A stretch of 64,000 nucleotides of DNA from a candidate division FCPU426 bacterium (GCA_040756875.1 JBFLYH010000001.1:1341367-1405366), one strand, 5' to 3'; numbered from the stretch's first letter, positions 19,650 through 64,000 are shown. The notes: a model not told the origin generated them from the letters alone. A program made the numbers and translations.

Positions 19650-19674
19650 AGCAACGATCGTTTTCCCGGCCAGA

Positions 19675-21995: not shown

Positions 21996-22009
21996 TTTGT
22001 GCACATGGG

Positions 22010-22113: not shown

Positions 22114-22137
22114 AATATCTTGTGATAGGATGACGCC

Positions 22138-23892: not shown

Positions 23893-24404
23893 GCGTAGAA
23901 ACCGCTGAAACGTTGGATCCCCAAATCATCGCTTATATCGAGGCGTGCAGGAAACTTCCGCATCCCGAAAGCTACCTCATGTCCATTTTGCACCGGGTGC
24001 AGGGCCGGTACGGTTATTTATCCCAGGCGCATATGGCCGAAGTGGCCCAGCGCCTGCAGGTCCCGACTTCGGCAGTGAGCGGCGTTTCCACGTTCTATCA
24101 CTTTTTCCGCCTCCAACCCCAGGGCAAATACGCCATCTCGGTCTGTCTGGGCACGGCGTGCTTCGTGAAAGGCGCGGATAAAATCCTGGAGGCTTTTCAG
24201 TCCGAGTTGGGAATCGAATTGGGCGAGACGACCAAGGATGGGTTATTTTCGCTGGAAAACACGCGCTGCCTGGGCGTCTGCGGCCTGGCGCCCGTGGTGA
24301 CGATCAATGACAAAGTATACAGCCAGGTAACGCCCCAGCAAGTGCCGGAAATGCTGAACCGGCTTCTGGCCGCCGAAGCCAAGGAAACCGCGCCCACGGC
24401 CTGA
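23889..24404 (+). CDS. NuoE-like [2Fe-2S] thioredoxin-fold subunit (HydC/HndA-like)
   Basis: ATGA start/stop overlap with hydA. Sequence ...ISVCLGTACFVKGADKILEAF...TRCLGVCGLAPVVTIN is the NuoE/HoxE family four-Cys pattern. Confidence 0.85.
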   Translation: MSVETAETLDPQIIAYIEACRKLPHPESYLMSILHRVQGRYGYLSQAHMAEVAQRLQVPTSAVSGVSTFYHFFRLQPQGKYAISVCLGTACFVKGADKILEAFQSELGIELGETTKDGLFSLENTRCLGVCGLAPVVTINDKVYSQVTPQQVPEMLNRLLAAEAKETAPTA

Positions 24405-28922: not shown

Positions 28923-29126
28923 TCAGTCCTTCGCCCGAGTGTTCCAGCGGAAAGCCGCGTAAAGGGGATCATAACCGGATAGTGCGGTGATAAGCAGATA
29001 GATTGCAACCAGAATAAGCAACCCATTGAGGCCGCTGCGCGGTTCGCGCGTCATGCCGATCAAGCCGCACAAAGTGCAGACGAAAAACCGCGCGCCCTTG
29101 TCCAGGACGCCGAGGTTTTTAGTCAT
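28923..29126 (-). CDS. small two-TM membrane protein (DUF2892/YgaP-like?)
   Basis: 67 aa. GxLDKGARFFV followed by a hydrophobic hairpin. The 4-nt overlap with the downstream gene suggests a real gene. Family assignment is weak. Confidence 0.35.
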   Translation of the reverse strand: MTKNLGVLDKGARFFVCTLCGLIGMTREPRSGLNGLLILVAIYLLITALSGYDPLYAAFRWNTRAKD

Positions 29127-29716
29127 TTAATGACCGCGACCCTGAAGCGTTTGTGGAGTTTGTTGCCGCTCACCACCACGACATACACGCCTGAAGCCAC
29201 CACCTCGCCGCGGTCATTGCGGCCGTCCCAGATCGGAACCATGCCGCGCACCAGCGTCTGTTCTTTGGCCAGTTCGCGCACCAGCGTGCCGCTCTGGCTG
29301 TAGACGCGCACAGTCACCTCGCCGTGCAGCGTGGTGAGGTTTTGAACTTCCAGCGTCTGCCCTTCCATGGGATTGAAGGAATTATGGTTCACTGAAACCC
29401 TCAGGTTGAAGGCCTCGGTGGCGGTCGGCGTTACGGTCGAGGTCGGCGAGATGGTGAACGTCGGCGTGATGGTCGGCGAATGGGTGACGGTCAGCGTAAT
29501 GGTGGGGGTGGGTGTGATCGTAAAGGTCGATGTGAACGTCGGCGTGATGGTATAGGTGGGGGTGATGGTAAAAGTGGAAGTAATAGTATAGGTCTCGGTG
29601 ATCGTGGGCGTGGCCGTAAACGTTGGCGTGTCCGTCGGAGTGTCGGTCGGTGTGGCTGCCAGCGCCACAGCAGGCACAGCCCACGCCATTGTCAGGATCA
29701 TGAACCAACGCAACAT
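29123..29716 (-). CDS. small secreted Thr/Pro-repeat protein with FlgD-Ig-like C-terminal sorting-type domain
   Basis: Signal peptide MLRWFMILTMAWAVPAVALA. (TPTxT)n low-complexity linker. C-terminal ~95 aa with VRVYSQSGTLVRELA...WDGRNDRGEVVASGVYVVVV, the FlgD_ig / T9SS-CTD-like pattern. Confidence 0.65.
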   Translation of the reverse strand: MLRWFMILTMAWAVPAVALAATPTDTPTDTPTFTATPTITETYTITSTFTITPTYTITPTFTSTFTITPTPTITLTVTHSPTITPTFTISPTSTVTPTATEAFNLRVSVNHNSFNPMEGQTLEVQNLTTLHGEVTVRVYSQSGTLVRELAKEQTLVRGMVPIWDGRNDRGEVVASGVYVVVVSGNKLHKRFRVAVIK

Positions 29717-35229: not shown

Positions 35230-36572
35230 CGGCGCGGCCCCGCCTCCAGCCAGGATAGCTGGCCCGCGTCCGGGGCCACATCCGCCGGCGCCGCCTCGTC
35301 GTCGAAAAGCCGGATGCGGCCGTAGACCCCGTCATAGCCGGGAACGGCCGACACGGCGCCCCGGCGCATGCGCATCAGGGCTTCGGCCACCCGGCCGCCC
35401 GCCCATTCAGCCACCTGGTTTTCCGGGGCAAAAAGCAGAATCTCCAGTTCACTCCCCCCCTGTTCGACCAGCTGGTCCCAAACCCGCTGCACGCCTTTGG
35501 AGGCCGGCTTCTTGCCCAGGGCCTCGGCGACGATCTCGTCCAAGGGGATCAAATGCACGCTGGGTACGGCTTCCGGCGGCACGAAGCCCGCCGGACGGTC
35601 GGCCAGCTGCTCCACCCGCGAAGCCACGCCGCCGGTGAACGGTTTGCCGCACACCGGGCAGCGGCCACCCCATTCGCGGTACTCCGCGGGCGAAGCCGAC
35701 CGGCGGCAGGCGCTGTGCCCGGGCCAGTGGTATTTGCCTTCCTCGGGAAAGAACTCGACGGTGAAGCGGAACCGTTCGCGGTCCTTGCGGCGCAGGATGT
35801 CGCCCAGGTCCGTCCACGTCAGGGGCCCGCGGAAGACGTTGCACTCCCGGCCCAGGCGGCTCGGCGAATGGGCGTCGGAATTGGAGATCAGCGCCACGCG
35901 GTCGAGCTGGGACAGCCGCCAATTCATTTCCGGATCCGAAGAAAGGCCGGTCTCCGCCGCCGCCAAAAAGCCGGTTTCGTCTTCGAAGCACTCCTCCAGC
36001 GAATCGAATCCCGATTGCTCTCCCAGGACCGAAAACCAGGGCGTCCAGATGTGCGCCGGAATCACCAGGGTCTCCGGATCGATGCCCCTCAGCAGTTCGC
36101 ACAAGTGACGCGCCGAAAAGCCGAATATCGGCCGGCCGTCCGAGGCCACGTTGCCACGGCTGGCCAGCGCGCGGTTAATCTCGCGGGCCGTTTCCAGAGA
36201 GCGCGCCAAAAACAGCATGTGCACCCGCCGGGTTTTTCCGGCCTGCTTGTAGATGTGCGAAGTCTCCGCGGAAAGCACGAACCGGACATCCGGCCCCGCG
36301 CCGCGCAGCCGGTAAAAGCCGCTCTCATCGGGTTCCAGCTGTTCGGTCAGTTGCCGGAAATATTCGGGATGGGTGAAATCCCCCGTGGCCAGAAGCTGCA
36401 AGCCCTTGCGCCGGCCCCAATAGTGGAGCGAGGCGACCTCCATCTGGCTGGACGTGGCCCGGGAGAACTTAGAATGCAGGTGCAGGTCCGCGAACACCAG
36501 CGGCCGCGGTTGGGGGCTGAGGTCAGCCACCCGTCCGACCGCAGGTCCTGACGACGGGGGATTCACTGCCAC
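35226..36572 (-). CDS. PHP-domain protein, endonuclease Q-like
   Basis: N-terminal PHP metal-binding signature FADLHLHSKFSRATS...GDFTHPEY. C-terminal zinc ribbon GGRCPVCGKPFTGG. Overall architecture resembles EndoQ/TIGR00375. ATGA overlap with the M16 peptidase gene. Confidence 0.5.
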   Translation of the reverse strand: MAVNPPSSGPAVGRVADLSPQPRPLVFADLHLHSKFSRATSSQMEVASLHYWGRRKGLQLLATGDFTHPEYFRQLTEQLEPDESGFYRLRGAGPDVRFVLSAETSHIYKQAGKTRRVHMLFLARSLETAREINRALASRGNVASDGRPIFGFSARHLCELLRGIDPETLVIPAHIWTPWFSVLGEQSGFDSLEECFEDETGFLAAAETGLSSDPEMNWRLSQLDRVALISNSDAHSPSRLGRECNVFRGPLTWTDLGDILRRKDRERFRFTVEFFPEEGKYHWPGHSACRRSASPAEYREWGGRCPVCGKPFTGGVASRVEQLADRPAGFVPPEAVPSVHLIPLDEIVAEALGKKPASKGVQRVWDQLVEQGGSELEILLFAPENQVAEWAGGRVAEALMRMRRGAVSAVPGYDGVYGRIRLFDDEAAPADVAPDAGQLSWLEAGPRR

Positions 36573-49950: not shown

Positions 49951-50029
49951 ATCACCAAGGAGGCAGAACGGACGCGAAGGTGTTGGAAACCAAATCCACT
50001 AAAATTTCCGGAGCTATTTGGCTAAATAT

Positions 50030-51661
50030 ATGACAATATTTCTTTCCATGCGACGCTCATCCAGCCTTCTTCCCCTTCTGATCCTATCGATTATTTTCAG
50101 CGGCGGGTGCAAAAAATCCCCCTCTCAGCCTGCCGTTTCACCGGCGCCAACCGCCCTGCCCTACTCGGATCAAATTCTGTATACCTCCGGCGGCCAGTTG
50201 TACCTGACTTCCCTGGACGGAGAGCAAACAAAAAAACTAAGCGCTGCCGGCCGCAATATCTGGTTTCCTTCCGTATCGCCGGATTATACGCGGTTGGCCT
50301 TTTGGGCCGCTTCAAACGGGTTCCACGAACTGTGGGCCTATGACATCGCCGGGGATTCGCTCCGGCAACTCACCTTTTTCAACCAAAAGCTCGCCCAGGC
50401 GCATCTGCAGAATTTCAATTTGCACAACGCGCCCGCCTGGGAGCCTGACGGCAGGCGCATCGTCTTTTCGCAGGCGGACAAACTCTGGAGCGTCGACGCG
50501 GAGGGATTCAACCTGGAAACCGTCCTGTCCGACGGCGTTTTTTACGCCCCGTCCCTGTCGCCGGATGGAAAACTGTTGGCTTACGTTTCAGAACGCGACC
50601 AGGCGCGCAATCTTTTTATTCGCCGGCTGGGCACGAACGAAGAATGGCCGGTGACCGCTTTTCCCTACACCCACTCGGCAGGAAGCCCGAGTTGGTCTCC
50701 GGACGGATCGTTGCTCGCATTTGCCCTGGTGGCAGGCGAACAGGTTGATATCTGGGTGGTGCGCCCGGACGGAGAACAGTTGCGGCGCCTGACCCAGGAT
50801 GGATACAGCAATTCACCCGTCTGGTCGCCGGATGGCCAGCGTCTGGCTTTCGCCTCCGGAAGGCAGGATCCGTATCACTGGGAAATTTGGGTCATGAACC
50901 GCGACGGCGGCGGCCAGTTTGCCGTAACCCGCAATGGAGGCTCGTCGCCGGTTTGGATCCGAATGTCCAAGCAAGCGGCTTCCCCGGCGCCCATAGTGGT
51001 TGCCACACGGGTTCAATCCGCCACCCCGGCGATTTCGCCGAAACCTACGGCTGCTCCGACTTATAAACCCACGGCCCAGCCTACAGCCAAGCCTACAGCT
51101 AAGCCTACTGCCAAACCCACTGCCAAACCTACGCCTCAACCGACTCCCCGGCCCACCGCCAAACCCACGCCCCGGCCCGCTGTGAAATCCGTCACCACGC
51201 CGGCACCTGCAGCCACCGCAACCGGCGGCGAGGAGGAGGCGGAGTACGAGGAGTATGAAGAATATGCCGACGAGGATCAGGCGGTATTGCCCGAAGCGGA
51301 TCTGGGCGCGGCCGTGGAAGGCAACCGCATTGTTTTCACGCCGAAAATCGAGTTCTACTTCGCCAAAGACATGATCAAACCGGGTTCGCTGCCCACCTTA
51401 AAACAACTGGCCGAAGAATTGGACGCTTATCCGGATGCTTCGCTGGTTGTCAAAGGATACATGCGCGGACCGGGGTTCCTTAAAAAAATCCTGCCCATTC
51501 TAAAGACGCTCTCCCGGGCCAGGGCCAACAGTGTCTTGCGCCACTTGATCGTGAATGAAAAAATCCGCCAGATCAACGTAACCGCACTGGGCGAGACCGA
51601 TCCCGTGCCTGACGTTGCGCGCAACCAGGAAAAACCCGTTCTCATCGTCGAAGTAAAGTAA
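50030..51661 (+). CDS. TolB-like beta-propeller lipoprotein fused via a (PTAK)n linker to an OmpA/Pal-like C-terminal domain
   Basis: ATG 50030 (track start 50018 is TTG). Lipobox LSIIFSGGC. Five-plus TolB/WD40-like blades with P(S/A)(W/V)SPDG motifs. Low-complexity PTAKPTAKPTAKPTAKPTPQPTPRPTAKPTPRP. C-terminal ~150 aa with OmpA-like pattern (FTPKIEFYFAKD...LKQLAEELDAYPDASLVVKGY...RANSVLRHL). Confidence 0.7.
   Translation: MTIFLSMRRSSSLLPLLILSIIFSGGCKKSPSQPAVSPAPTALPYSDQILYTSGGQLYLTSLDGEQTKKLSAAGRNIWFPSVSPDYTRLAFWAASNGFHELWAYDIAGDSLRQLTFFNQKLAQAHLQNFNLHNAPAWEPDGRRIVFSQADKLWSVDAEGFNLETVLSDGVFYAPSLSPDGKLLAYVSERDQARNLFIRRLGTNEEWPVTAFPYTHSAGSPSWSPDGSLLAFALVAGEQVDIWVVRPDGEQLRRLTQDGYSNSPVWSPDGQRLAFASGRQDPYHWEIWVMNRDGGGQFAVTRNGGSSPVWIRMSKQAASPAPIVVATRVQSATPAISPKPTAAPTYKPTAQPTAKPTAKPTAKPTAKPTPQPTPRPTAKPTPRPAVKSVTTPAPAATATGGEEEAEYEEYEEYADEDQAVLPEADLGAAVEGNRIVFTPKIEFYFAKDMIKPGSLPTLKQLAEELDAYPDASLVVKGYMRGPGFLKKILPILKTLSRARANSVLRHLIVNEKIRQINVTALGETDPVPDVARNQEKPVLIVEVK
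51040..51180 (+). repeat. in-frame 12-nt tandem repeats encoding (PTAK)n / PT(P/A)xP linker
   Basis: cctacagccaag / cctacagctaag / cctactgccaaa / cccactgccaaa ... read directly. Coding, inside the TolB-like gene. Confidence 0.6.
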
Positions 51662-51803: not shown

Positions 51804-53768
51804 TTACCAGTTGGTGGGCATGGCCTTGCGCGCCTTGTCCTTGTCCGCGCATTCGGCTTTCAAGGCCTGCAAGGTGGGGAAAAGCTTTTCCGCGGATGCA
51901 ACCGTGGTGGCATAGTCTTCGCTGCGCAGCAGCAACTTGATCTTGCCGAGCTCCTGCTTCAGTTCCGCCACTTGCTTGGGAAAATAGCGTTCTCCGTTCA
52001 GCGTATCAATGTCCAGCATCAACTTGACGGCCCGGCCATAAGCGCCGCGGGCGCGCTTGCGCAACCGTTGAACACGCGCGTCCAACGGAGCGGTCAGGGT
52101 AGCCTTTTCGGGGGCAGGCGTCACGGCCGGGACCGGCGCAGAATCCCGGGATTTTTCCGGCGCGGGCGCCGGCGGCGCTTTGACTTCTTCGGCTTCGGCT
52201 TTTTCCCTCCGGACGGCGCGGACCGCCAAACGCTCGGCTTCACGGCTAACCGCCTGGGAAATCGCCTGCACACGTTCGCTTTCCCCCACTGAAAGGTTTT
52301 CCTCGGCTAAGGCCAGTTGTTTCTGCAACGCCGAAAGTTCTTCGTCGAAATATTCCCGCACTCGCCGGTTTTTCCTGGCTGCCGAGAAGGCCGCCCGGGC
52401 GCGCTGCAAACTCGAACCGGCCTCGCGCAAGGCTGCACGCCGGGCCACCAGCGCAGCCTCCCGTTCCTTGCGTTCCTGCTGTTGCTTTTGTTGTTCGGAC
52501 AACACCTCGAGTTTCTTCTGCACGGACTGGAGCAACAGGGAGGCCTGGCTGTGGCGGGGGTCCAAGGTCTGCGCCTTGCGGTATTCCGAAGCGGCACTAA
52601 GCAGGTTACCCTCCTTTTCGAATTCCAACCCCTGGTCGATATGAATGCGGATTTCAGCCTGGCGTTTGAGGGTCTCATTCAGCGCCGTGATTTTTTGGCG
52701 CAGGGTTTGGTCATCCGGAACCATTTCCGCGGCTTCTTCCCACGCCTGCAACGCCGCCTGGGCGTCGCCTTCGCGGCGGTAGTCCTCGCCCTCCTCGATC
52801 AAGCGGTCGGCCAGCGCGCGGGCGTCATCCTCGGCGCTTTGGGAAGCTCCAAACGTGAATTGCAGGTTCAACAGATGCGTGACTCCGGCCTCGCTGAATC
52901 CCCCCAGAGGAATGACGAGGGCGTATTCCACGCCCACGGACCACGCGGTTTGGGGCAGACGCAGGGTAAACCCTGCCGTGGCTTCGGAAAGCTCGCGGTC
53001 GCCCAGAGCCAGTCCCAAGCGGCTCGCGAAAATGCCGCGAACCCACCAGGCCTCCCCGCCCAGGGCCAGGCGATAGTGTCCGGACTGCGTCAGGGCTTCG
53101 AAGCCGGCCAGATAATTTTCCTGCCTCCAGCCCGCACCGGCCCGCAACTGGAACGGGACGCGCGACTCGGCGCCGGACAACGAAAGGTTGGGCTGGTTCA
53201 CGTTCGCCAACGACAAACCAGCGGTGATTTCGTCCGTCAGATACATCAGCCCGCCCACGTCCACACCCACGGCCAGGGCCGACGTCCCGCCGTCGAAGTA
53301 GGGGTTCGCGGCAGTTGCAGCGGAATCCAGATAGCGCTGCTGCAGCAGTTTTAAAGCGATGCCGGCCATATAGCTTCCGGTTTCATCGAGCGCCAGGCCA
53401 TATCCCAGGGCCCAAAGGTTTTCCTGATACATATCTTGTAAAGAGCGTTGAAACCACGAGGCGCCGATCGAACCGTAATCTTCCAGGGGTTGGATATACG
53501 ATATCCTGCCCTCCGACAACACTCCGTCATTGAGTCCGGCCAGCAGACGCCCATAGCTGAGACCTGCCATCGGCGTCGGAATCTGCGCCATTCCCGCGGG
53601 GTTGGAAAAAAGCGCATCCGTGTCGTCAGCCAGGGCGCAGAACGCGCCAGCCATGCCCGCCGAACGGGCGCCGGGTTTTTCCAGCTCAAACCCCGCCTGC
53701 ACGAGGCGCGGCCCGCAAAAAGCGGCCGTTCCGAACAGCAACAATGCCCAACCCCAGGAGGTTTTCAT
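51804..53768 (-). CDS. FadL/PorV-family beta-barrel fused to a C-terminal TPR + long coiled-coil + Pro-rich region (654 aa)
   Basis: Signal peptide. ARSAGMAGAFCALADDTDALFSNPAGMA, the same Gly-rich plus NPA hatch signature as 17561..18484. About 330 aa of amphipathic beta-strands. Then TPR-like helices, an E/K/R/Q-rich coiled coil, APPAPAPEKSRDSAPVPAVTPAPEKA, and a ~100-aa tail. ATGA overlap with 53765..54676. Confidence 0.6.
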   Translation of the reverse strand: MKTSWGWALLLFGTAAFCGPRLVQAGFELEKPGARSAGMAGAFCALADDTDALFSNPAGMAQIPTPMAGLSYGRLLAGLNDGVLSEGRISYIQPLEDYGSIGASWFQRSLQDMYQENLWALGYGLALDETGSYMAGIALKLLQQRYLDSAATAANPYFDGGTSALAVGVDVGGLMYLTDEITAGLSLANVNQPNLSLSGAESRVPFQLRAGAGWRQENYLAGFEALTQSGHYRLALGGEAWWVRGIFASRLGLALGDRELSEATAGFTLRLPQTAWSVGVEYALVIPLGGFSEAGVTHLLNLQFTFGASQSAEDDARALADRLIEEGEDYRREGDAQAALQAWEEAAEMVPDDQTLRQKITALNETLKRQAEIRIHIDQGLEFEKEGNLLSAASEYRKAQTLDPRHSQASLLLQSVQKKLEVLSEQQKQQQERKEREAALVARRAALREAGSSLQRARAAFSAARKNRRVREYFDEELSALQKQLALAEENLSVGESERVQAISQAVSREAERLAVRAVRREKAEAEEVKAPPAPAPEKSRDSAPVPAVTPAPEKATLTAPLDARVQRLRKRARGAYGRAVKLMLDIDTLNGERYFPKQVAELKQELGKIKLLLRSEDYATTVASAEKLFPTLQALKAECADKDKARKAMPTNW

Positions 53769-54676
53769 CGCGCCAGCACCACTGCGGCCCGGTAGGTTCG
53801 ATTCCCGGCCTGAATGACCAAGACATATATTCCGGCCGGCAAAGCTTTGCCCGCATCATCCCGGCCGTCCCAGCGCACGGTATAGTCCGGGATTTGGCCG
53901 CGCACCGTGCCTTCCGCGACACGCCTGCCGTTGAGCGAATAGACTTTGGCGTGTATCTCTCCCGCCGAAAGCTCGGATTGGAATACCGCCGCCAGTTCCC
54001 GGTTCAGGCTTCCATCCGGAGTGAATGTGCGCGTTAGCCATCTGACATTTCCCAACAAACCGGAAAAAGCAACCGTCGGCGGCGAGACATACGGAACCCG
54101 GGTGGGACTGATGCTGGGCGTCGGCGAAATGGTGGGGGTGCGTGTAATCGTGAAAGTCGGCGTAACGGTGGCGGAAGGTGAAAAAGTCGGCGTGCGGCTG
54201 GGTGTGGGGCTGATGGTGCCGGTCGGGCTTTCCGTGGCCGTCTCGCTGATCGTGGGTGTAGCGGTCCGGGTGGCGCTCTCGGTGGGAGTAGTCGTGATGG
54301 AAAGCGTAGGGGAAATCGTCGGGGTTGGAGACTCGGTCGCAGTGTCCGTGGACGTCGGCGATTCGGTCAAAGTCGGGCTCAAGGTGGGAGTGGCTGAAAG
54401 AGTGGCTGTCCCGGTGATCGTAAACGTGCCTGTCGGCGTGGGAGAATCGGTCAGCGTCGGCGTGACAGTCGCGGTGGGTGTATCCGTCGGCGTGGAAGTC
54501 AGCGTGACAGTCTCGGTCGGGGTCGGCGAGTCCGTGGGTGTGTCAGTAAAAGTCGGCGTGTCCACGGCCGCCGCATACAAATTCGAAGCCGAAAAAACCG
54601 CCAAAGCACACGCGACCATCACACTCAGCACACACCCTAATCGCAACATAGCCCCTCGCGTGAAGTGTTTTCGCAA
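53765..54676 (-). CDS. secreted Thr/Pro/Ser-rich repeat protein with FlgD-Ig-like C-terminal sorting-type domain
   Basis: Signal peptide. About 180 aa of (TPT/SPT/TES)n low complexity. C-terminal VYSLNGRRVAEGTV...WDGRDDAGKALPAGIYVLVIQAGNRTYRAAVVLAR. Confidence 0.65.
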   Translation of the reverse strand: MRKHFTRGAMLRLGCVLSVMVACALAVFSASNLYAAAVDTPTFTDTPTDSPTPTETVTLTSTPTDTPTATVTPTLTDSPTPTGTFTITGTATLSATPTLSPTLTESPTSTDTATESPTPTISPTLSITTTPTESATRTATPTISETATESPTGTISPTPSRTPTFSPSATVTPTFTITRTPTISPTPSISPTRVPYVSPPTVAFSGLLGNVRWLTRTFTPDGSLNRELAAVFQSELSAGEIHAKVYSLNGRRVAEGTVRGQIPDYTVRWDGRDDAGKALPAGIYVLVIQAGNRTYRAAVVLAR

Positions 54677-54746
54677 GTATTGATCTTACGAATTAACCTC
54701 TTGGATTTCAATGTTTTTTTAGACCGGACGCCAAGGGGAACCTTGC

Positions 54747-55988
54747 TTACTTCACCAGCGCAACCTTTTTCTTTTCGCTTCGGACAATGCCACCCTGCTG
54801 GTTGGAAATCCTGATCGTCAGCAGATAAATCCCGGGCGCGGCTTCCGGCGCATTCCAGACGCAGGTCAGCATCTGTCCACTGCCGCCATCCCGGGACTCC
54901 AGGATGTGCGCCACCCTTTCCCCGCACATATTGTAAATATCCACTGCCACTTGAACCTGCCCCTCGGCCGGATAGGCGATCACCACCCGGTTACGGGCCG
55001 GATTGGGATAGACGGTCGTTTCACTCAAACGCAGAAGCGGGGAGGGCGTGGCGGTCATCGTCGCCGTCACGGTGGGAGTCCCCGTATCCGCAGGGGTCGG
55101 CGTCACGGTGAATGAAGGCGTGACCGTGGGCGTCGGTGATAGGGTCGGAGTGTCGGTCCAGGTGCCGGTGGCAGTGAGCGTCGGCGTCATCGTCAGCGTC
55201 GGCGAAGCTGTCGCGGTAAATGTCACGGTCAGGGTCGGGGTCGCGGTCGGCGTGGCAGTGGAAGTTTCAGTAGCCGTAGAAGTCGGCGTAACGGTCTGGG
55301 TTGGAGTCGAAGTCAGGGTGACGGTCGGGGTGAGGGTCGGCGTGGGCGTGGGAGGCGGCATGCGCACCGTGACGTAATCCACGACAAAGTAGGTGCTGCC
55401 AAAACCCTCGGCCGTCAGTTGCACGCGGAAAGTGTGCCCCGGGCCGATCCACCCCATGATCGAGGCATAATTAAGGATGAATGTCCCGGTTGTGCTTGTG
55501 CTGGAGACAAGGTCCCGATACTGCCAGGCCCCGTTGATTTCCTGGATGCCAACCTTCCATGTCATGGATGGCGAGAGCGAGGTCACGCGGATCTCAATGT
55601 GCGTGAAAACACTGGTGTTTGGAGAAAGGAGCGGAGAAAGCACCTTGCCCCAGGTGCTGTCCGCTGTCCGCGTCACGGCCGCTTGCGAAACCAGGCAGGA
55701 GTAGGAAATATGCGCATTGAACAGCGGATCGTCGCTTTCATCCTGCCAGCCTGCAGGCTGTGCACCCGGCGGTCCTGCATCAAAGTCGTCCCGCCAGTAT
55801 TCATAAGTCGGCGTATTGGTCGGAGTGGGCGTGCTGGTGGAGGTGCAGGTGTGAGTTGATGTCGCCGTCAGGGTAGGTGTGTCTGTCGGGGAGGCGGCCC
55901 AAAGCCCCTCTCCTTGGGCCAACAAAACCAGCCACAGGCCGGCCGGTATCATAAGGGTGTGCTGCATTACCCTTTTCATGGGCATCAA
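54747..55988 (-). CDS. secreted protein: signal peptide, TPT linker, one copy of an uncharacterised ~145-aa domain, TPT linker, T9SS-type CTD
   Basis: CTD: VYPNPARNRVVIAY...GERVAHIL...PGIYLLTIRISNQQGGIVRSEKKKVALVK. Domain core: YWRDDFDAGPPGAQPAGWQDESDDPLFNAHISYS...AAVTRTADSTWGKVLSPLL...WKVGIQEINGAW...GWIGPGHTFRVQLTAEG. Confidence 0.7.
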   Translation of the reverse strand: MMPMKRVMQHTLMIPAGLWLVLLAQGEGLWAASPTDTPTLTATSTHTCTSTSTPTPTNTPTYEYWRDDFDAGPPGAQPAGWQDESDDPLFNAHISYSCLVSQAAVTRTADSTWGKVLSPLLSPNTSVFTHIEIRVTSLSPSMTWKVGIQEINGAWQYRDLVSSTSTTGTFILNYASIMGWIGPGHTFRVQLTAEGFGSTYFVVDYVTVRMPPPTPTPTLTPTVTLTSTPTQTVTPTSTATETSTATPTATPTLTVTFTATASPTLTMTPTLTATGTWTDTPTLSPTPTVTPSFTVTPTPADTGTPTVTATMTATPSPLLRLSETTVYPNPARNRVVIAYPAEGQVQVAVDIYNMCGERVAHILESRDGGSGQMLTCVWNAPEAAPGIYLLTIRISNQQGGIVRSEKKKVALVK

Positions 55989-56172
55989 CAGCCAGTTGCA
56001 ACGAATACCGTTAACTTTTCAGACTATGCTTGACTCCTTTCTTTTCAAAGAAAAACCACGTCTGATTCCCGGCCTTCTCATCATTCTAATTATATCACTG
56101 TTTCGAACGGATCGTTCCCGGAAAAAGGCTTGTTTTACAAGGCGTTCTTCAGGCATGGCATCTACCAGGCTT

Positions 56173-59100
56173 TTATCGGATAATAGCGACCTTTTTAGTT
56201 TCAGAAAAAACGATTCTTCCGTTCGCGTCAAGTATCCTGATCCGAGCTAAATACACCCCTGGCGCCTGGTCCGAACAATTCCAGAGCAGGGTCATGGTCT
56301 GCCCCCGGCCAGCCTGTTGATTCTCGATCAAATGCGCCACGCGCTCTCCTGCCAACTGGTAAATATCAATGGTGACCGTATAATTGCCGCTGCGGGTATA
56401 AGCGAAGGTCGTCCGGTTACGGGCCGGGTTGGGATAGACCATGACCCGGCCTGCCTCCAGCCAGGGCGTAGGCGAAGGCGTGGCTGTGTTCAGCGTGCCG
56501 GCACCGATCGCGTTGTCAGGCGTGGGGCTGATGGTGAAGGTCGGAGTGGGCGTGGGCGGCAAGGCATAGATTCTCACTGAATCAGCCAGTAAATAACTGC
56601 CCGGGCTTCCTTCCAGCGTCAGTTGGATAAAAAAACTCTGGCTGCCGCTGCGACCCATGACCGTGGGAATGTCGAACACAAAACTTCCGGTCTGGGAGGT
56701 CAACGGCATGAGCGTCCAGAAGGACCACGCCCCGCCGTTTTCCTGGATGCCCGCGTTCCACACTGCGCCGGGCGAGAGGCCGAGCACCCGGAGTTCCAGC
56801 CGGTTATACTGGGAAACATTGCACGTTAAAGCCGGAGAAAGCACCTTGCCCCAGGTGTCGTCCGCCGTGCGGGTAAGCGCGGCGCAGGACGGCGAGGCAG
56901 AGTAGGCCAGATGACAATCAAAGGCCGGGTTCTCGCTTTCATCGCTCCACCCCGGCGGTTGCACCCAAAACGTCCCGTTGAAGTCCTCCAGCCAGAAGGT
57001 GTCGGCCGGCGTCGGACTCGGGGTCGGCCGGTTGCCGTTCACCACGCTGACGTTTTCGACCAGCACCCAGGAGTTGTCCAACGAAAACTGGCTTTCCACA
57101 CCGCCGACCGCCACGGTGAAATACTGGAGCCCACTTTGCAGGGAGAGCGGCAGGTAGTGGCGTAGATTGAATTTGAAAGCCCCCTTCACCGGGGAATCAT
57201 AGTGCATGCGGACCGAATACCCGCTGGGAGTGTTGCTTAAAAAGGCGTACCATTTTCCATAGAGGTCTTTGATATCGATGCGCAGGTCAGCCTCCTGGTC
57301 CATGTCAACGCTGAACGGGTAAATTTTTTCGATCGAGCCGTACCCGTAAGGCTCAGCCCCGCGATACAGGTCATAGATCCTGACCCCATTCTCCAGCGGC
57401 GCAAACTGGGCGCGATTATAAACCGGCGTCCACTGGGCGGTGACGCCCGGCAGCTGGGTGTTGAGCATGATCTGCTCGCCCCCCGCAGCCGGAGGCACCA
57501 CGGTCCAGGGGTCGGACGGCCGGGGCACTGGTCCCGGGTTTTTCAGGTTGCTGCCTGTGTAAGCAGTGGCGTTCACCTCGGCCCCGGACCGCAGCAGTCC
57601 GGCCGCCGTGAACAGCCCCATCAAATGCGGCGTCCCGTCTTGTTCGGTGTCGTTGAGCAGCCACACCAGCCCGCCCGCGAGGTCGGTCTGGTAGATGCTG
57701 TCCCAGACATGGGTGAAATAGTCGCTCACTTCCGCCGCCGGCGGGCTGAGGTTGAAATCCATCCCAAACTCTTCAAACAGTATGGGTTTAACCTGGCCTA
57801 ATGATTGCATCAGGGTTCTGGCTTGCATGGCCGCGCCGATATAAGCGTCCCTGCGGTCGTAATAGTGAATGGTCACCACATCCACAGGCGCCAGATCCAG
57901 GCTGCGCAGGCTGTCCGGCCAGGCCGTAGCCGCTATCACCAAATGATTGGGATCCAGGCTCTGCATATACCCCGCCAGATCCTGGTGCCAATCCAAGGCG
58001 TACGGATGAGCTGTCAAATCACCGTTAACCAGCGCCACATAGACATCCAACTCGTTGGTGACGCCCCACCCTAAAATGCGGTCGTCGTCCCGGAACCGCT
58101 CCAGAATGAGGCGCACATGGTTCTTTTGGTCCGTTCGGGTCGCGGGAGAATAATTCCGCGTATAGGGGAAAAACGTGAATTCCACTTTCAACCCCGCTTT
58201 GTCCGCAAAGTACAGGAATTGTTCCATGCGGGCCAACATCTCGGGCTTGACCGCGGCCCCGCCGAATTCATCATAATGGATGAACGTGCGGATGGTGTTG
58301 AATCCCAGGCCGGTCGCGCGGCTCAGCTCGGTTTCGATCATGGCTTGATCCCATTCCACCCACATCTTTTGCCAGCCGTGCGCCGAGGGATAGTAATTGG
58401 CCCCTTTGATTTTAACGATCGTTCCCTGCAACTCCAATTGTTCGGGGTCCGCGCCGCTGACCCGGACGAAATCACCGGCCGCCGCCTGGCGGCGGTTCCC
58501 GAATACCCGCACACTCTCCACCGTGATTTGTTCGCCCGCCGCCCCTTCCACGGTAATTTGCACCACGATATCCTTTTCGCCGGACCAGCCGATGATCTGG
58601 GCGTAATCAAACTCGAAAACCCCGTCCGTGGTCTGACTGGCGCATAAATCCCAGTAATTTGAAGTCCCATTTTCCAAAATGCCCACTTTCCACGAAACCG
58701 CGGAAGAAAAGCTGCTGACATTGATCTCCAGGCGGTTATAGGCGTTGACATCACAGCGAATGGGCGAGGACAACACCTTGCCCCAGACATCCTCCGCAGT
58801 GCGCACGATTGCAGCCGACGAAACGCCGCTGTAGTTTATCTCGGCGTTGAAAGTCGCATCATCCGTTTCATCGAACCAATTGGAGGGCTGGAGGCCTGCG
58901 GTGCCGGTAAAATCCTCATGCCATATGTCCGCCGTCAGGGCGCTGGGCGTGGGGGTACGGGTCGGCGTTGAAGTCGGCCCGTCGGGCGTGAAGCTTGGGG
59001 TGGGCGTGGGGCTGGCCGTCGGAGTGGGTGGAGCCGAACGCACGCTCACATAATCCGCCACCAGATACTTCCCCACACCTCCCTCCACGGTCAATTGAAC

Positions 59101-59673
59101 GTAAAAATCCTTCGTGCCGCTCCATCCCATGGCTGAAGCATAGGGATATATGAAAGTTCCGATCTGGCTCTGGCTCGCGCACAGGCTTTGGTACGTCCAG
59201 GAACCCCCATATTCCTGTATACCGATCTTCCAGGTGGTGGTCGGTGAAAGCCCGGCGATCTTGACTTCTACATAACCAAACTGGCTGGTATCGCAATGCA
59301 AAAGCGGCGAAAAAACCTTGCCCCAGACATCTTCGGCGGTCCTGGTTACCGCGGCCAGGGACGGTTGAAAGGAATAAGCTATTTCTGCATTGTAGGTATT
59401 GACATCCGTTTCGTCCTGCCATCCGGCCGGTTGTAGTCCGGGTGTACCTCCGTTAAAATCATCCCGCCAGAATTCAATCACCGGTGTGGCGGTCGGGGAG
59501 GGCGTGAGGGTAAACGTTACGGTTGCGGTGGGAGAAGGTGTCTGGGTATCCGTATCTGTCGGAGTAAACGTAGGGGAGGCTGCCATGACGGTGTTGAAAA
59601 TGCAAAAAAACATCACTATGTTAAAAGTAATGATTCCTGCCCACGTTCTCTGCTTCCCAGGCATGACAGCCAT
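56173..59673 (-). CDS. 1166-aa secreted protein: three copies of the uncharacterised ~145-aa domain, a central clan GH-A (GH5-like) TIM-barrel glycoside hydrolase, and a T9SS-type CTD
   Basis: Domain copies begin FWRDDFNGGTPGLQPAGWQDETD, IWHEDFTGTAGLQPSNWFDETD and FWLEDFNGTFWVQPPGWSDESE. GH-A region: GFNTIRTF...GWGVTNELD (acid/base NE)...VVTIHYYD...ILFEEFG (nucleophile E). CTD: VYPNPARNRTTFAY...GVYLARIRILDANGRIVFSETKKVAIIR. Confidence 0.75.
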   Translation of the reverse strand: MAVMPGKQRTWAGIITFNIVMFFCIFNTVMAASPTFTPTDTDTQTPSPTATVTFTLTPSPTATPVIEFWRDDFNGGTPGLQPAGWQDETDVNTYNAEIAYSFQPSLAAVTRTAEDVWGKVFSPLLHCDTSQFGYVEVKIAGLSPTTTWKIGIQEYGGSWTYQSLCASQSQIGTFIYPYASAMGWSGTKDFYVQLTVEGGVGKYLVADYVSVRSAPPTPTASPTPTPSFTPDGPTSTPTRTPTPSALTADIWHEDFTGTAGLQPSNWFDETDDATFNAEINYSGVSSAAIVRTAEDVWGKVLSSPIRCDVNAYNRLEINVSSFSSAVSWKVGILENGTSNYWDLCASQTTDGVFEFDYAQIIGWSGEKDIVVQITVEGAAGEQITVESVRVFGNRRQAAAGDFVRVSGADPEQLELQGTIVKIKGANYYPSAHGWQKMWVEWDQAMIETELSRATGLGFNTIRTFIHYDEFGGAAVKPEMLARMEQFLYFADKAGLKVEFTFFPYTRNYSPATRTDQKNHVRLILERFRDDDRILGWGVTNELDVYVALVNGDLTAHPYALDWHQDLAGYMQSLDPNHLVIAATAWPDSLRSLDLAPVDVVTIHYYDRRDAYIGAAMQARTLMQSLGQVKPILFEEFGMDFNLSPPAAEVSDYFTHVWDSIYQTDLAGGLVWLLNDTEQDGTPHLMGLFTAAGLLRSGAEVNATAYTGSNLKNPGPVPRPSDPWTVVPPAAGGEQIMLNTQLPGVTAQWTPVYNRAQFAPLENGVRIYDLYRGAEPYGYGSIEKIYPFSVDMDQEADLRIDIKDLYGKWYAFLSNTPSGYSVRMHYDSPVKGAFKFNLRHYLPLSLQSGLQYFTVAVGGVESQFSLDNSWVLVENVSVVNGNRPTPSPTPADTFWLEDFNGTFWVQPPGWSDESENPAFDCHLAYSASPSCAALTRTADDTWGKVLSPALTCNVSQYNRLELRVLGLSPGAVWNAGIQENGGAWSFWTLMPLTSQTGSFVFDIPTVMGRSGSQSFFIQLTLEGSPGSYLLADSVRIYALPPTPTPTFTISPTPDNAIGAGTLNTATPSPTPWLEAGRVMVYPNPARNRTTFAYTRSGNYTVTIDIYQLAGERVAHLIENQQAGRGQTMTLLWNCSDQAPGVYLARIRILDANGRIVFSETKKVAIIR

Positions 59674-59793
59674 AAACCCCCCAGAAGTCTGACGACTCTG
59701 GCTAACCCCTGCTTATATTGTATCCTTAAAAATCCCTATAAACACTATCTATATTTAGACTAGCTCATTTAGCTAATATTTCCGTTTTTCCAA

Positions 59794-59832
59794 ATAAAAA
59801 GGGGGGCAGAGGTTATCCCTCCGCCCCCCCCT
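59794..59832 (-). terminator. rho-independent terminator downstream of 59850..62333
   Basis: + strand AAAAAGGGGGGCAGAGG-ttat-CCCTCCGCCCCCCCC. On the minus transcript this is a 10/11-bp GC hairpin followed by UUUUUAUUUGG. Confidence 0.65.
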
Positions 59833-59849
59833 AAAGGCACAAACATAGT

Positions 59850-62333
59850 TTATTTGATAATAGCGACTTTTTTCTTCTCTTTCATAAGCACCTGTCCGCC
59901 TGCATCCGTGATTACAATCCGGCATAAATATACGCCCGGCGCCACGTTCACCGCATCCCAGGCAGTCCTCAACGTCTGGCCGGTTCCGCCGTTTACCGTT
60001 TCCGTGACCGAAGCCACCCGTTCACCCGCCAGCGTAAAGATATCGATGGTTACTTTCCCCGCGCCGGGCACGGTGTAGGCAAAAAACACTTTGCCTTTGG
60101 CCGGGTTGGGATAGGGCAAGACCTGGTTGGCAGCCACGAAAGGCGTGGCCGTCGGGGTGGCGGTCGGCGTGGGGGTATTCATTGCCAGTTGCGCGGTTGG
60201 CTCAGGCGTGGGGGTCAAGGTCAGGGTTGGAACGGGTGTGGAGGTTGCCGAAAAAGTTGGAGTCGCGGGTATGTAGATGGCGCCTAGTACGGTCTCTTCG
60301 CCGCCCACACGCACCCAATCCACTTCCACGGCCTTGCCCGGCGCACCCTCCACGGTCAGCTGGACGCGGAAGGCGTGCGTACCACTCCATCCTGTTGCGG
60401 TTGCGTAATTATACTTGTATGTTCCGGTTCCGGTCTGACTTCCGCTGAGGTTGTAGTAGGTCCAACTGCCCTCAGCCTCCTGGATGCCGACTTTCCAGCT
60501 GGCGTCGACGCTCACCGAAGCCACGGCTACCTCCACATAGCTATATACCGAAACATTGCAGTTGATGACCGGCGAAAGCACTTTGCCCCATTCACCCTCG
60601 GCGGTGCGCGTTACCGCGGCCAGTGAGCTGACCGCGGAGTAAGCGATTTCGGCGTTGAAATTGGCGTCATCCGTTTCGTCCATCCAGTTCGCGGGTTGTT
60701 GCCCCTGGGTGCCCGCAAAATTCTCGAAATACGCATTGCTCGGTGTCGGAGTGGGAGTGGGCGTTATGGTCGGCGTGGGGGTGGGCGAGGGCATGCCTTC
60801 ACGGTGAATCCGCACCTGGTCAAACGTGACAACGCAATTGCCGCCCTCGGAAATCAGTTCCACCCCCAGGTTTTTCACCCCGCTCCAGCCGGAGGCGGTC
60901 GGGATGTCGAAGGAATAGGTGCCCGGCGCCGCCAGCGAACCGCTGCAGACATGCTCCTCCCACCCGCCGGCCTGGCTGAACACCGCGATCTTGGCCGTGC
61001 CGCCCGAAATGGCCGAGATCGTCACCTCCAGAGTGCTGTACAGGTTCAAATTCACATCCGCAGAATAGGACAGCACTTTGCCCCACTCCTGGCCGGAGAC
61101 CGTGGTCACTTCGGCCAGGCTGTCTGTGGCCGCGTAGGCGATCTGGGCGTTCATGCCGCCGTCGTCCGATTCATCGTACCATCCTGCCGGCTGCGCCCCC
61201 TGCGAGCCGCCGGAGAAGTGCTGGTTCCAGAACAGGGGGTTGTTTTCCCACCAGTCGATCCGGTCGCCCCCGAACGTGGGCGCGACGACATCGGCATCGC
61301 CATCCCCGTCCACGTCAGCGGTTATCACATCAATCACGCCCCCGTAATTGTCATCGATGACATGGGCGGTGATATTTTCGGAGCCGTCGTTCTCCCACCA
61401 GACGATGTCACAGGAATCCTTGGCGCAGCCGACCACATCCAGGTCCCCGTCATTGTCCATGTCGGCCGCCAGGACGGATTGCGCTCCGTCGAAGCCGGTG
61501 GCGATGACATGTTTGGTAAAACTCATCGACAGGTTGTTCTCATACCACGCAACCGTATCCTGCCCTTCGGAAGCCGCCAAAATGTCCACGTCGTTGTCCT
61601 GGTCCAAATCCACAGCCACCACATCCGTAGGATCGATAAAATTCGAGTCGACTACCCTCTCGGTATATTTATCGAGAGAAGGGTCGTATTCAAGGACCAA
61701 AATGTCCTCGACATCAACTGCGCCTGCAATGACATCAATATCCCCGTCATTGTCCATATCACCGGCGTCGATGAAATAAGTATACTTCGGATTGACGAAG
61801 ACGTTTTTTTCAACAAAGCCGCCGGAGCCGTTGTTGATCCATTTGATAATATCGCCCTGGTATATCTTGCTGCAGAGCACGTCCAGATCATTGTCCAGGT
61901 CCAAATCCTTGACCCTTATCTTTTTGATCCAGGCAAATTCCGGGTATGGCTCCGAGGTCATGTTGTGGTGGGTGAAATTCTCCGAGCCGTCGTTCTCCAG
62001 CCACATGGAACGGCTGCCGCCGACGGCAATATCCACATCCCCGTCCCCGTCCAAATCGCCGGCACTGACCGTATCATCATACTTGATATTTGTCCCGGCC
62101 GTATGCCTGATAAAATTGCCGACACCGTCATTTTCCCACCAATAAACCGTTTGCTCCACAATGCCAATAATGTCCATATCGCCGTCAGTATCCAAATCCG
62201 CAGCGCAAATTTCCAAAGGTCCATCGACGCTATCCTCGACTTCGCGTTTTTGAAAGTCACTGCTCCAAGCCAAGGATTGCAGTAAAAGCAAGGCCGCACC
62301 CAACATGCCGTACCGGACGATTGAATTGCGCAT
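59850..62333 (-). CDS. 827-aa secreted protein: FG-GAP/VCBS-like beta-propeller, two copies of the uncharacterised ~145-aa domain, T9SS-type CTD
   Basis: Signal peptide. Six-plus blades with DxDxDGDxDI(V/A) motifs (DLDTDGDMDIIG, DLDGDGDVDIAVG, DMDNDGDIDVIAG...). Domain copies begin FWNQHFSGGSQGAQPAGWYDESDD and AYFENFAGTQGQQPANWMDETDD. CTD: PYPNPAKGKVFFAY...GVYLCRIVITDAGGQVLMKEKKKVAIIK. Confidence 0.75.
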   Translation of the reverse strand: MRNSIVRYGMLGAALLLLQSLAWSSDFQKREVEDSVDGPLEICAADLDTDGDMDIIGIVEQTVYWWENDGVGNFIRHTAGTNIKYDDTVSAGDLDGDGDVDIAVGGSRSMWLENDGSENFTHHNMTSEPYPEFAWIKKIRVKDLDLDNDLDVLCSKIYQGDIIKWINNGSGGFVEKNVFVNPKYTYFIDAGDMDNDGDIDVIAGAVDVEDILVLEYDPSLDKYTERVVDSNFIDPTDVVAVDLDQDNDVDILAASEGQDTVAWYENNLSMSFTKHVIATGFDGAQSVLAADMDNDGDLDVVGCAKDSCDIVWWENDGSENITAHVIDDNYGGVIDVITADVDGDGDADVVAPTFGGDRIDWWENNPLFWNQHFSGGSQGAQPAGWYDESDDGGMNAQIAYAATDSLAEVTTVSGQEWGKVLSYSADVNLNLYSTLEVTISAISGGTAKIAVFSQAGGWEEHVCSGSLAAPGTYSFDIPTASGWSGVKNLGVELISEGGNCVVTFDQVRIHREGMPSPTPTPTITPTPTPTPSNAYFENFAGTQGQQPANWMDETDDANFNAEIAYSAVSSLAAVTRTAEGEWGKVLSPVINCNVSVYSYVEVAVASVSVDASWKVGIQEAEGSWTYYNLSGSQTGTGTYKYNYATATGWSGTHAFRVQLTVEGAPGKAVEVDWVRVGGEETVLGAIYIPATPTFSATSTPVPTLTLTPTPEPTAQLAMNTPTPTATPTATPFVAANQVLPYPNPAKGKVFFAYTVPGAGKVTIDIFTLAGERVASVTETVNGGTGQTLRTAWDAVNVAPGVYLCRIVITDAGGQVLMKEKKKVAIIK

Positions 62334-62475
62334 GCCACACCTCCGAGTTAATCAGGCAAATCCCCCAAGTCTTTATACCTTGGGGTTGAATATGGGGTAG
62401 ACGCAAATGTCTCACATTTTATTACATTTATTTTTGCTTATTATATACATGGTTTCTATTTGGCGTATAAATAAT

Positions 62476-62512
62476 TGAAAAAGGGGCGGGCTGCCACTGG
62501 CCACCCGCCCCC
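62476..62512 (-). terminator. rho-independent terminator downstream of 62546..64000
   Basis: + strand AAAAAGGGGCGGG-ctgccactggcca-CCCGCCCC. On the minus transcript this is a perfect 8-bp GC stem followed by U5. Confidence 0.7.
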
Positions 62513-62545
62513 GTGCGAAAGAACGCCCACAGCTGCGTTCTGTGC

Positions 62546-64000
62546 CTACTTGATCAGCGCCACTTTCTTGGTCTGGTTGAGGACGATCTTCCCTTCCCCG
62601 TCTGTTACCACGACCCGCACCAGGTAAATCCCCGGAGCCACACCGGCGGCCTTCCAGCTGGTGGTCAGCGTCTGGCCCGTGCCCTGCTTGTGTTCCACAA
62701 TGCTCGCCACCCTTTCGCCGGTCAGGCGGAAGATGTCGATTTGGACTTTCACCGGCCCGTTAACCGTGTAGGCGAAATTCACCTGCCCGCGCGCTGGATT
62801 GGGATAGGCCGCCACGGTTTGCGCCTTGACAAAGGGCGTGGAAGTGGAAACCGGCGTCGGCGTGCCCGTGGCTGCGGATATAATCGTTTCCGGCGTGCTG
62901 GTCTTGGTGGCCGTGGGAGTCGGGGTCGGCGTCGAGGTAAGGGTGGAAGTCGGCGGAATGTAGATAATGGCAGCCTGGGCTTCCTGCTGCATGAGTTGGT
63001 CGCCCACGGCCTGCGCTTCAGCCTGAGTTTCAAAGTTCATGCTGGCAGTTATCTTTTCATCCATCCGTTCCACTGACGCGGCGCTTACCCACCAATCCGG
63101 CACCACGATAATGGGAACATAGCTGATTCCTCCCAATCCCTGGTTGTCCACACTGATGATATTGACCTCCCAGTTCTTGTTGCCGGCGGTGAAGGCGGCA
63201 CTGGCCGGTTCTCCGGCAGGACCGGTGATGCGCGTGACTTCTTTCACTCCGCCGAAAGTGCCGGAACCGGTTATCACGCGGTAACGCAGGGTGATACTCG
63301 GCTGCGGTGTAAGTTGATAGAGCGAAGTCGCCAAGATATTCTGGGTATGCGTAGTGTGCATGAAGTAAGACAATTCCGGCCAGGCCCTAACCCTTTGCGG
63401 AGTTTTCGGTGTCGGCGTGGGCGTCGGCGTGATCGTCGTTTCCGAAGTTGAGGTATACGTCTCGGTCGGCGTATGGGTATAGGTGTAGGTTTCCGTCGGC
63501 GTCTCGGTGAGTGTCGGAGTCAGCGTCGGGGTATAGGTCGGCGTATCCGTTGCCGTGTCGGTCCACGTTTCGGTCGGGGTCTCGGTCGGCGTGTCCGTGG
63601 GCGTGTCGGTCGGGGTCTCGGTATACGTGTACGTCGGTGTCTCAGTTGGGGTGTCGGTCGGGGTGTCAGTTGGCGTCTCGGTCCACGTTTCAGTCGGAGT
63701 CTCGGTCGGTGTATCCGTGGGCATGTCAGTCGGGGTCTCGGTATACGTGTACGTCGGTGTCTCAGTTGGGGTGTCGGTCGGGGTGTCGGTTGGCGTCTCT
63801 GTCCACGTTTCGGTCGGTGTCTCGGTCGGTGTATCCGTGGGCGTGTCAGTCGGGGTCTCGGTATACGTGTACGTCGGTGTCTCAGTTGGGGTGTCGGTCG
63901 GGGTGTCAGTTGGCGTCTCGGTCCACGTTTCAGTCGGAGTCTCGGTCGGTGTATCCGTGGGCGTGTCAGTCGGGGTCTCGGTATACGTGTACGTCGGTGT
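62546..64000 (-). CDS. secreted repeat protein with T9SS-type CTD, 5' end outside the window (frame stays open through the 120-bp tandem repeats to position 64000)
   Basis: CTD: [38 protein letters not shown]...[29 protein letters not shown] central ~150-aa globular region ([10 protein letters not shown]...[16 protein letters not shown]). N-terminal (TPTDTPTE)n. The track's start at 63724 is just the only ATG in an otherwise open repeat frame. Confidence 0.65.
63555..64000. repeat. near-perfect 120-bp tandem repeat (at least 3.7 copies, continues past window end), coding for a 40-aa [40 protein letters not shown] unit
   Basis: Lines at 63601, 63721, 63841 and 63961 are in register with 0-3 mismatches per copy. 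Period 120 nt = 40 codons, so frame is preserved. Confidence 0.8.

Follow-up and report, generated by a model that had tools for sequence, protein, structure and literature searches.

The window analysed here is a 64,000-nucleotide stretch of DNA from a candidate division FCPU426 bacterium (GCA_040756875.1, JBFLYH010000001.1:1341367-1405366). Between 51.8 and 64 kb it holds a run of genes for modular proteins that close in C-terminal domains (CTDs) of the type found on type IX secretion system (T9SS) substrates, beside a conserved gene trio that includes a PorV-class barrel. This region is best explained as the edge of a lineage-specific, expandable cargo array whose products would be exported by Sec, sorted to the cell surface by a T9SS-type CTD route and act there on polysaccharide, an explanation to which a probability of roughly 0.6 is assigned. 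The observation is real; its interpretation is reasonable but unproven.

C-terminal domains and layout of the cargo proteins

Six consecutive genes (B, C, D, E, F and G) occupy the minus strand from 51804 to 64000, and gene A diverges from them on the plus strand. The CTD-bearing proteins of the window, including two encoded outside this run (H and I), are organized as follows, PT standing for Pro/Thr-rich:

54747-55988, minus strand, D: signal peptide, PT linker, new beta-sandwich (55359-55805), PT linker, type-A CTD (54750-55031)
56173-59673, minus strand, E: signal peptide, two copies of the new domain (59035-59478 and 58498-58932), putative GH5-like core (about 57511-58494), a region without family match, another copy of the new domain (56563-57003), CTD (56176-56460)
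59850-62333, minus strand, F: signal peptide, FG-GAP repeats (about 61254-62216), two copies of the new domain (60801-61235 and 60300-60737), PT linker, CTD (59853-60137)
62546-64000, minus strand, G, running off the window: PT/TE-rich repeats, a domain of about 150 amino acids (aa), PT linker, type-A CTD (62549-62830)
6064-9879, minus strand, H: beta-helix (NosD-like), FG-GAP repeats (FG-GAP_3), type-A CTD (6067-6342)
53765-54676, minus strand, C: signal peptide, PT-rich stretch of about 160 aa (residues 35-195), FlgD_ig-type domain (53768-54052)
29123-29716, minus strand, I: signal peptide, PT stalk, FlgD_ig-type C-terminal domain (29126-29410)

The type-A CTD is about 95 aa long, always sits at the extreme C-terminus and closes with KKVAL(I/V)(K/R). 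On TIGR04183 (cut-off 23 bits), D, E, F and G score 30.1, 25.8, 29.2 and 32.1 bits. On PF18962 (cut-off 27 bits), D, E, G and H score 29.3, 28.1, 30.2 and 30.2 bits, and F falls below at 25.1. H gives no TIGR04183 match at E<=0.01, and its type-A assignment comes from Pfam alone (PF18962). C and I reach 27.4 and 31.5 bits on PF13860 (FlgD_ig; cut-off 27 bits). The curated models therefore recover every tail that the initial annotation had placed in these two classes, the type-A kind at 6064 (H, through PF18962), 54747, 56173, 59850 and 62546 and the FlgD-Ig kind at 29123 and 53765. It had counted at least eight such products; a hidden Markov model (HMM) built from the window's own CTDs and run against all open reading frames (ORFs) of at least 70 aa in the window returns exactly seven, five of type A (D-H) and two of FlgD_ig type (C and I). 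That the two kinds are related, as also proposed there, is upheld by profile alignment (hhalign probability 95%, E 3.5e-8, 64 columns). Both finish in a hydrophobic-basic terminus, e.g. KKVALIK or VVLAR, and on sequence grounds the two tails are judged homologous. CTD scores above curated cut-offs, always at the very C-terminus, argue for surface sorting.

D, E, F and G share a common layout, in which a signal-peptide-like N-terminus is followed by PT linkers, passenger modules and the C-terminal type-A CTD. Signal peptides were judged by eye (a charged, then hydrophobic N-terminus and a small-x-small site). All cargo proteins have a hydrophobic N-terminus and then an AxA-like site (...GLWA/AS in D, whose start codon is TTG; ...TVMA/AS in E), which likewise supports sorting to the surface.

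C and I carry no globular passenger; besides the signal peptide they have only a PT-rich stalk (90-160 aa) and the FlgD_ig-type tail. Instead of bearing a passenger domain, they might serve as surface 'stalk' or coat proteins. Of a FlgD hook-capping protein they have the Ig-like domain (PF13860) alone: the N-terminal FlgD domain was not found, and the remainder is signal peptide and PT-rich linker. The tail of C is below the cut-offs of the CHU_C type-B model (18.6 bits vs 27), TIGR04183 and PF18962, and that of I matches the C-terminal region of PorZ (E 5.7e-7). The PT-rich C gene (53765-54676 in the window; L007 8956-9612 and L009 8906-9691 in related loci) is overlooked or cut short by two automatic gene callers, Logan and JGI, which put antisense ORFs in its place. 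High-GC PT and coiled-coil regions give long spurious antisense ORFs elsewhere too, at 52317-53354 and 60696-62285, both on the plus strand.

A new beta-sandwich module and a putative GH5-like core

The passengers of D, E and F have in common a module of about 148 aa, present in six copies with 32-56% pairwise identity and marked by the motifs QPxxWxDE(S/T)D, WGKVxSP, GWSG and EG. It has no Pfam or PDB sequence match even at E<=10 and no NCBIfam match. Its fold is a beta-sandwich resembling carbohydrate-binding modules (CBMs) of families 4 and 22, with 8-14% sequence identity to CBM4/CBM22/CBM29-type modules. The fold is common to these families, but the new module has its own motifs and is matched by no existing CBM family model. 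Binding of carbohydrate by this CBM-like module would be its likely role.

A full HMMER search of 1.84 billion cluster representatives recovers 337 proteins that contain the module (E<=1e-3), a single protein having as many as 11 copies. An apparent rarity of the module, based on a word-indexed search that returned one relative, was accordingly rejected as an effect of search sensitivity. Por_Secre_tail occurs in 16 of the 42 module-bearing proteins scanned with Pfam; other partners in this set are Kelch, FG-GAP, LVIVD or DUF5122 propellers, Laminin_G_3, GxGYxYP and PKD. The lineage's own CTD is found in 44 of the best 150 representatives, exactly C-terminal in 39, and this association further supports a surface-sorting role for the CTD.

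E appears to hold, in addition, a divergent glycosidase TIM-barrel core related to glycoside hydrolase family 5 (GH5, clan GH-A). Residues 394-721 match a DUF5060-domain protein (PDB 9gmj, E 3.4e-7) and a mannanase (7bob, E 1.8e-6) in phmmer searches of the PDB. E541, in an NE motif, aligns with the NE of the chain, where the variant chain 9gpc reads NQ, and E635, in EEFG, aligns with its EFG. In these alignments the acid/base (NE) and nucleophile (EFG) positions of GH5/clan GH-A endo-mannanases and of 9gmj appear to be kept in E, a point in favor of the proposed action on polysaccharide. E differs from the endo-mannanases in that its core lies outside every Pfam glycosidase model. Sugar hydrolases are a major class of T9SS substrates (PMC11205867), and Cytophaga hutchinsonii secretes cellulases through its T9SS (PMC12860637). 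The combination of glycosidase, CBM-like modules and CTD matches such reported substrates and favors the surface-sorting interpretation.

In F, the FG-GAP repeat region (FG-GAP_3, 104 bits) is predicted to form a propeller. Two regions of about 150 aa, residues 722-890 or so of E (window 57000-57510) and 62900-63370 in G, match neither family models nor the new-domain HMM and are probably further uncharacterised modules. G also contains a 120-bp (40-aa) PT/TE-rich tandem repeat (63528-64000, at least 3.9 copies, 93% matches), and in an independent Logan assembly the contig ends inside this gene.

PorV-class barrels and the C-B-A trio

Two barrel proteins of this class are encoded in the window, one of them within a conserved trio:

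51804-53768, minus strand, B: signal peptide, 14-strand PorV/FadL-class barrel (about 52851-53696), tetratricopeptide repeat (TPR)/coiled coil (about 51822-52841)
17561-18484, minus strand, J: stand-alone PorV/PorQ-family barrel adjoining fba and hydrogenase genes
50018-51661, plus strand, A, divergent from B: probable lipoprotein with TolB-like PD40 beta-propeller, PT linker and OmpA-like C-terminal domain

J scores 136.1 bits on NF033709 (PorV/PorQ; cut-off 90) and weakly matches Flavobacterium johnsoniae PorV (PDB 6h3i_F, E 8.5e-5). PorV is also the top match in a fold comparison of the B barrel, and the 14-strand FadL-type barrel with N-terminal hatch expected of the PorV/PorQ family is present. 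The earlier assignment of both proteins to the PorV/FadL class is thereby confirmed, and it adds to the case for surface sorting. B carries an extension of about 340 aa (TPR/coiled coil) that closes in an invariant KAMPTNW; the PorV chain of 6h3i, 345 residues long, leaves no room for such an extension. On TIGR03519 (PorP/SprF), B scores 19.5 bits, far from the cut-off of 90.55, and one B homologue has a precomputed PorP_SprF Pfam match (PF11751).

The stop of C overlaps the start of B by 4 nt, and the two genes are translationally coupled. A matches PD40 (94.8 bits), TolB (TIGR02800, E 8e-41) and, weakly, OmpA; in the PDB it matches TolB (E 1e-19) and the OprF C-terminal domain (E 2e-4). A PorE-like identity was considered for A, which combines a propeller with OmpA, and was rejected: there is no PorE match, and the sequence evidence is for TolB and OmpA only. 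A relative's barrel-OmpA fusion has a weak PorE match through its OmpA part.

Conserved backbone, variable cargo

The closest relative recovered is the metagenome-assembled genome (MAG) binchicken_co22_256. It keeps the gene order F-E-D-C-B at 53-79% amino-acid identity, at one end of a roughly 48-kb island. About twelve genes on one strand of this island close in a CTD, and most of them contain the new domain. Two stand-alone PorV-like genes sit amid this cargo, together with a second CTD-barrel pair; here the CTD protein precedes a PorV-like barrel to which a phosphonate-binding-like domain is fused. The presence of PorV-like genes within the array, and of this second CTD-barrel pair, supports the surface-sorting reading.

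In two more distant relatives (B identity 46% and 41%) the backbone is intact, in the order helicase, PatA_N protein, C-B-A, sensor proteins, LMWPc, rpiB and glyA, with no cargo genes between the PatA_N block and C. Cargo genes at this locus thus range from none (two relatives) through four or more (the window) to about twelve that end in a CTD (one further relative). In each of the four genomes examined, B and the C-like gene share a 4-nt overlap, a conservation that also speaks for a CTD-barrel partnership in sorting. A is a conserved neighbour of B in the relatives, and a PD40 protein is found at the same position in L010.

D-G are therefore a variable array beside a conserved C-B-A trio. 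The 'island' of the initial annotation is confirmed by this comparison, with no cargo in two distant relatives and a much enlarged set in a closer one. B, which that annotation included in the cargo island, is a conserved core gene coupled to C and not variable cargo. Horizontal transfer of the D-G array was also considered; its GC content (0.58) is close to that of the window (0.577) and its domain copies are 32-56% identical, and local duplication fits better.

Across relatives, the C-terminal modules fused to PorV-like barrels differ: the phosphonate-binding-like periplasmic domain just mentioned (L005:13896-15911) in one, FlgD_ig and OmpA in another (L008:7708-9627; 94 bits on PorV_fam). 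These fusions suggest a lineage-wide use of PorV-like barrels as anchors for periplasmic modules. An NtrC-type sigma-54-dependent response regulator and an extracytoplasmic function (ECF) sigma factor are encoded within the relative's island (33531-35643; L005:17209-19321), directly upstream of a PorV-like gene, and may control its array.

Host and existing annotation

The window is 100% identical to an NCBI MAG annotated with PGAP and labelled 'candidate division FCPU426' (locus tags AB1439_, 1.6-Mb contig), whose entries include MEW6516365.1 and MEW6516331.1. B, F, H and I are identical to its proteins at 100%, and J likewise from an inner start; D and E share 90%-identity clusters with NCBI proteins of the same MAG, for which later starts are called. 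PGAP names D (MEW6516367.1) and E 'T9SS type A sorting domain-containing protein', J (MEW6516331.1) 'PorV/PorQ family protein' and I 'FlgD immunoglobulin-like domain containing protein', and calls B and H 'hypothetical'. Most of the labelling (D, E, J and I) is thus already public and not new. The analysis contributes a family of CBM-like domains, a putative GH5-like core in E, the finding that C-B-A is a conserved trio with a fused PorV-class barrel, and the variability of the cargo locus.

In NCBI taxonomy, FCPU426 sits among unplaced candidate phyla, outside the Fibrobacterota-Chlorobiota-Bacteroidota (FCB) superphylum. The phylum label is approximate, because the co-assembly that yielded the closest relative was aimed at GTDB phylum JAAXVQ01. 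A literature search on secretion in FCPU426 or JAAXVQ01 returned nothing. The window has a GC content of 0.577 and [FeFe] hydrogenase genes at 19815-24404, in agreement with the high-GC, hydrogenase-bearing context first described.

Proposed route and competing explanations

In the proposed mechanism, the modular cargo proteins would cross the inner membrane via Sec. Their CTDs would then be recognised, and a T9SS-type route, the core genes of which would lie elsewhere in the genome, would bring the proteins to the surface. Of the PorV-like barrels, J may serve as a CTD receptor or shuttle, and B may do so for its partner C; the TPR/coiled-coil extension of B would presumably be periplasmic. 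At the surface, the cargo would bind and cut polysaccharide via its CBM-like modules and glycosidase. Domain identities, folds, gene order and the variable nature of the locus come directly from the analysis; passage through the outer membrane, recognition of CTDs by barrels and binding of carbohydrate are inferred from them.

This mechanism is reminiscent of the type-A pathway of the Bacteroidota T9SS (Porphyromonas gingivalis, F. johnsoniae; 6h3i), with which the window shares the Sec signal, the modular passenger, the Ig-like CTD and a 14-strand PorV/PorQ-family barrel in the same genome. It differs in the FCPU426 host, in the modest CTD scores (25-32 bits) and in that no translocon, motor or sortase genes are found in the loci inspected. 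In F. johnsoniae, type-B CTD substrates are paired with adjacent cognate PorP/SprF-like shuttle genes (PMC12618676). The C-B pair and the relative's second pair resemble these in joining a CTD gene to a dedicated barrel, and the 954-aa partner in the relative reaches the CHU_C type-B cut-off (28 vs 27 bits). In contrast, B scores 19.5 bits on TIGR03519, the tail of C is FlgD_ig-like and C has no passenger; adjacency alone is common.

Several observations weigh against a T9SS-type route. None of SprA/Sov, PorK/L/M/N, the PorU catalytic domain, PorT, PorW and the PorZ body was detected in the 64-kb window or in about 140 kb of related loci, a small sample of any one genome. For the window, the scan covered ORFs through Pfam/NCBIfam or through precomputed Pfam matches on the Logan contig, a few small ORFs being left out, and bears out the remark in the initial annotation that no T9SS core gene is visible there. 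Reviews confine T9SS genes to the FCB superphylum (PMC11285876, PMC11205867), and NCBI taxonomy does not put FCPU426 there. As for the barrels, J finds its nearest homologues beyond the lineage in Elusimicrobia, and UPF0164, a Treponema family in Pfam, is carried by many J homologues, mostly within the lineage. PorV-likeness alone is weak evidence for a T9SS. B scores below the NF033709 cut-off (57.8 bits, E 1.3e-15, vs 90), and OmpG and FadL nearly equal PorV as fold matches for its barrel. The fusion of PorV-like barrels to OmpA or phosphonate-binding-like modules in relatives points the same way, and the position of FlgD_ig between barrel and OmpA in L008 suggests that some of these Ig domains are periplasmic. 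Of the pathway 'outside the classical Bacteroidota context' that had been suggested for this region, then, the CTDs recognised by curated HMMs, the PorV/FadL-class barrels and the host label outside FCB stand, and the machinery has not come to light in the window or the related loci.

One alternative is an explanation without sorting. The CTDs would be ordinary structural Ig-like modules, the barrels FadL/UPF0164-type uptake channels or anchors, and the modular proteins periplasmic or released otherwise, by a type II system or in vesicles. The homologues of J do match the FadL-type (Toluene_X) family as well as UPF0164, FlgD_ig does occur inside a barrel-OmpA fusion, and J itself lies among housekeeping genes (fba, hydrogenase) in conserved synteny and not beside cargo. 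Yet in over 20 proteins from several genomes the domain is strictly C-terminal and its basic terminus conserved; scores exceed the curated cut-offs for type A; the cargo array of the relative has PorV-like genes within it; and C and I, made of nothing but a PT stalk and CTD, would hardly make sense as periplasmic proteins. The barrels also differ from FadL and Treponema UPF0164 barrels in their association with CTD-bearing genes and their fusion to periplasmic modules, and no lipid-uptake gene context is seen. Absence of sorting is considered unlikely.

A CTD pathway could also exist that is not a classical T9SS, in a lineage without PorKLMN and SprA, where the many PorV/PorP-like barrels, some with periplasmic TPR, OmpA or binding-protein-like modules attached, would be the receptors or anchors of the CTDs around a conserved C-B-A core. 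The coupling of C and B in four genomes with A always adjacent, the second CTD-barrel pair, the PF11751 match of a B homologue, the host outside the named FCB phyla and the lack of core genes in every locus inspected are all consistent with it. Set against this, FadL-type 14-strand barrels are not known to be able to move folded proteins of 400-2000 aa across a membrane, the type-A CTDs closely resemble those of Bacteroidota, which use SprA, and with about 5% of any one genome inspected the absence of core genes is not established. Such a pathway is quite doubtful, and a specific version of it, in which FCPU426-type bacteria lacking PorKLMN and SprA would sort Ig-like CTDs via PorV/PorP-like barrels mounted on periplasmic scaffolds, with C-B(-A) as the core, is a long shot. 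At the other extreme the case may be wholly ordinary, FCPU426 being an unrecognised FCB relative with a canonical T9SS elsewhere in its genome and the array one more substrate cluster. PGAP already applies T9SS names here, and several FCB phyla that have been studied less are suspected to have a T9SS (PMC11285876); the B-type barrel fusion and the new domain family are left unexplained. This is quite possible, at somewhat less than even odds, and being a special case of the T9SS-type surface-sorting explanation it overlaps with the latter's probability instead of adding to it.

Transcription signals and other features of the window

The initial annotation gave each cargo gene its own strong terminator. 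This is true of F and G only:

59798-59832, minus strand: intrinsic terminator 3' of F, a 15-bp stem with 10 GC pairs, then a T run
62478-62512, minus strand: intrinsic terminator 3' of G, GGGGCGGG...CCCGCCCC then TTTTT, read by eye

Near G, the hairpin scan reported only a weaker hairpin at 62544-62528 and not the one at 62478-62512. No strong terminator lies downstream of D or E, and C overlaps B.

The heptamer AGTCTAA occurs five times on both strands of the window and the relative's 55.5-kb island (merged L003/L005/L002), at 9929-9935 and 59755-59761 (minus strand) in the window and at 15955, 20130 and 48400 in the island. Each of the five sites has the sense orientation and is followed within about 100 nt by a CTD cargo gene (H, E and three in the relative). 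Its count in the window is at chance level (2 vs 1.98 expected), and it is the placement that stands out; in other loci the heptamer is not exclusive to cargo genes. It may be a promoter element.

Two regions lie apart from the array. J is adjoined by fba and genes for a NuoF-like protein, the [FeFe] hydrogenase large subunit and a NuoE-like protein (a HydABC-type set, 18594-24404), and its neighbourhood is kept in the relative GCA_021108215.1 (L008 1-4437). Between 10019 and 16624, on the minus strand, two paralogous gene pairs each encode a Big_5 Ig-like lipoprotein with an LSSC lipobox (476 and 483 aa) and a second protein, some 600 aa long, that ends in LYY, has no Pfam or NCBIfam match and is probably an outer-membrane barrel. 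Together with H, this segment may have been acquired, since its GC content is 0.39-0.52 vs about 0.6 elsewhere.

Significance

The presence, in a seldom-sampled candidate phylum, of type-A CTD substrates together with PorV-class barrels implies either that the range of T9SS is wider or that its tag and shuttle can exist without the machine. Should the barrel-scaffold route prove true, it would represent a minimal or ancestral form of CTD-dependent surface display outside the FCB superphylum. The undescribed CBM-like family and the divergent GH5-like enzyme are candidates that offer practical leads for polysaccharide degradation in an anaerobic lineage of the rare biosphere.

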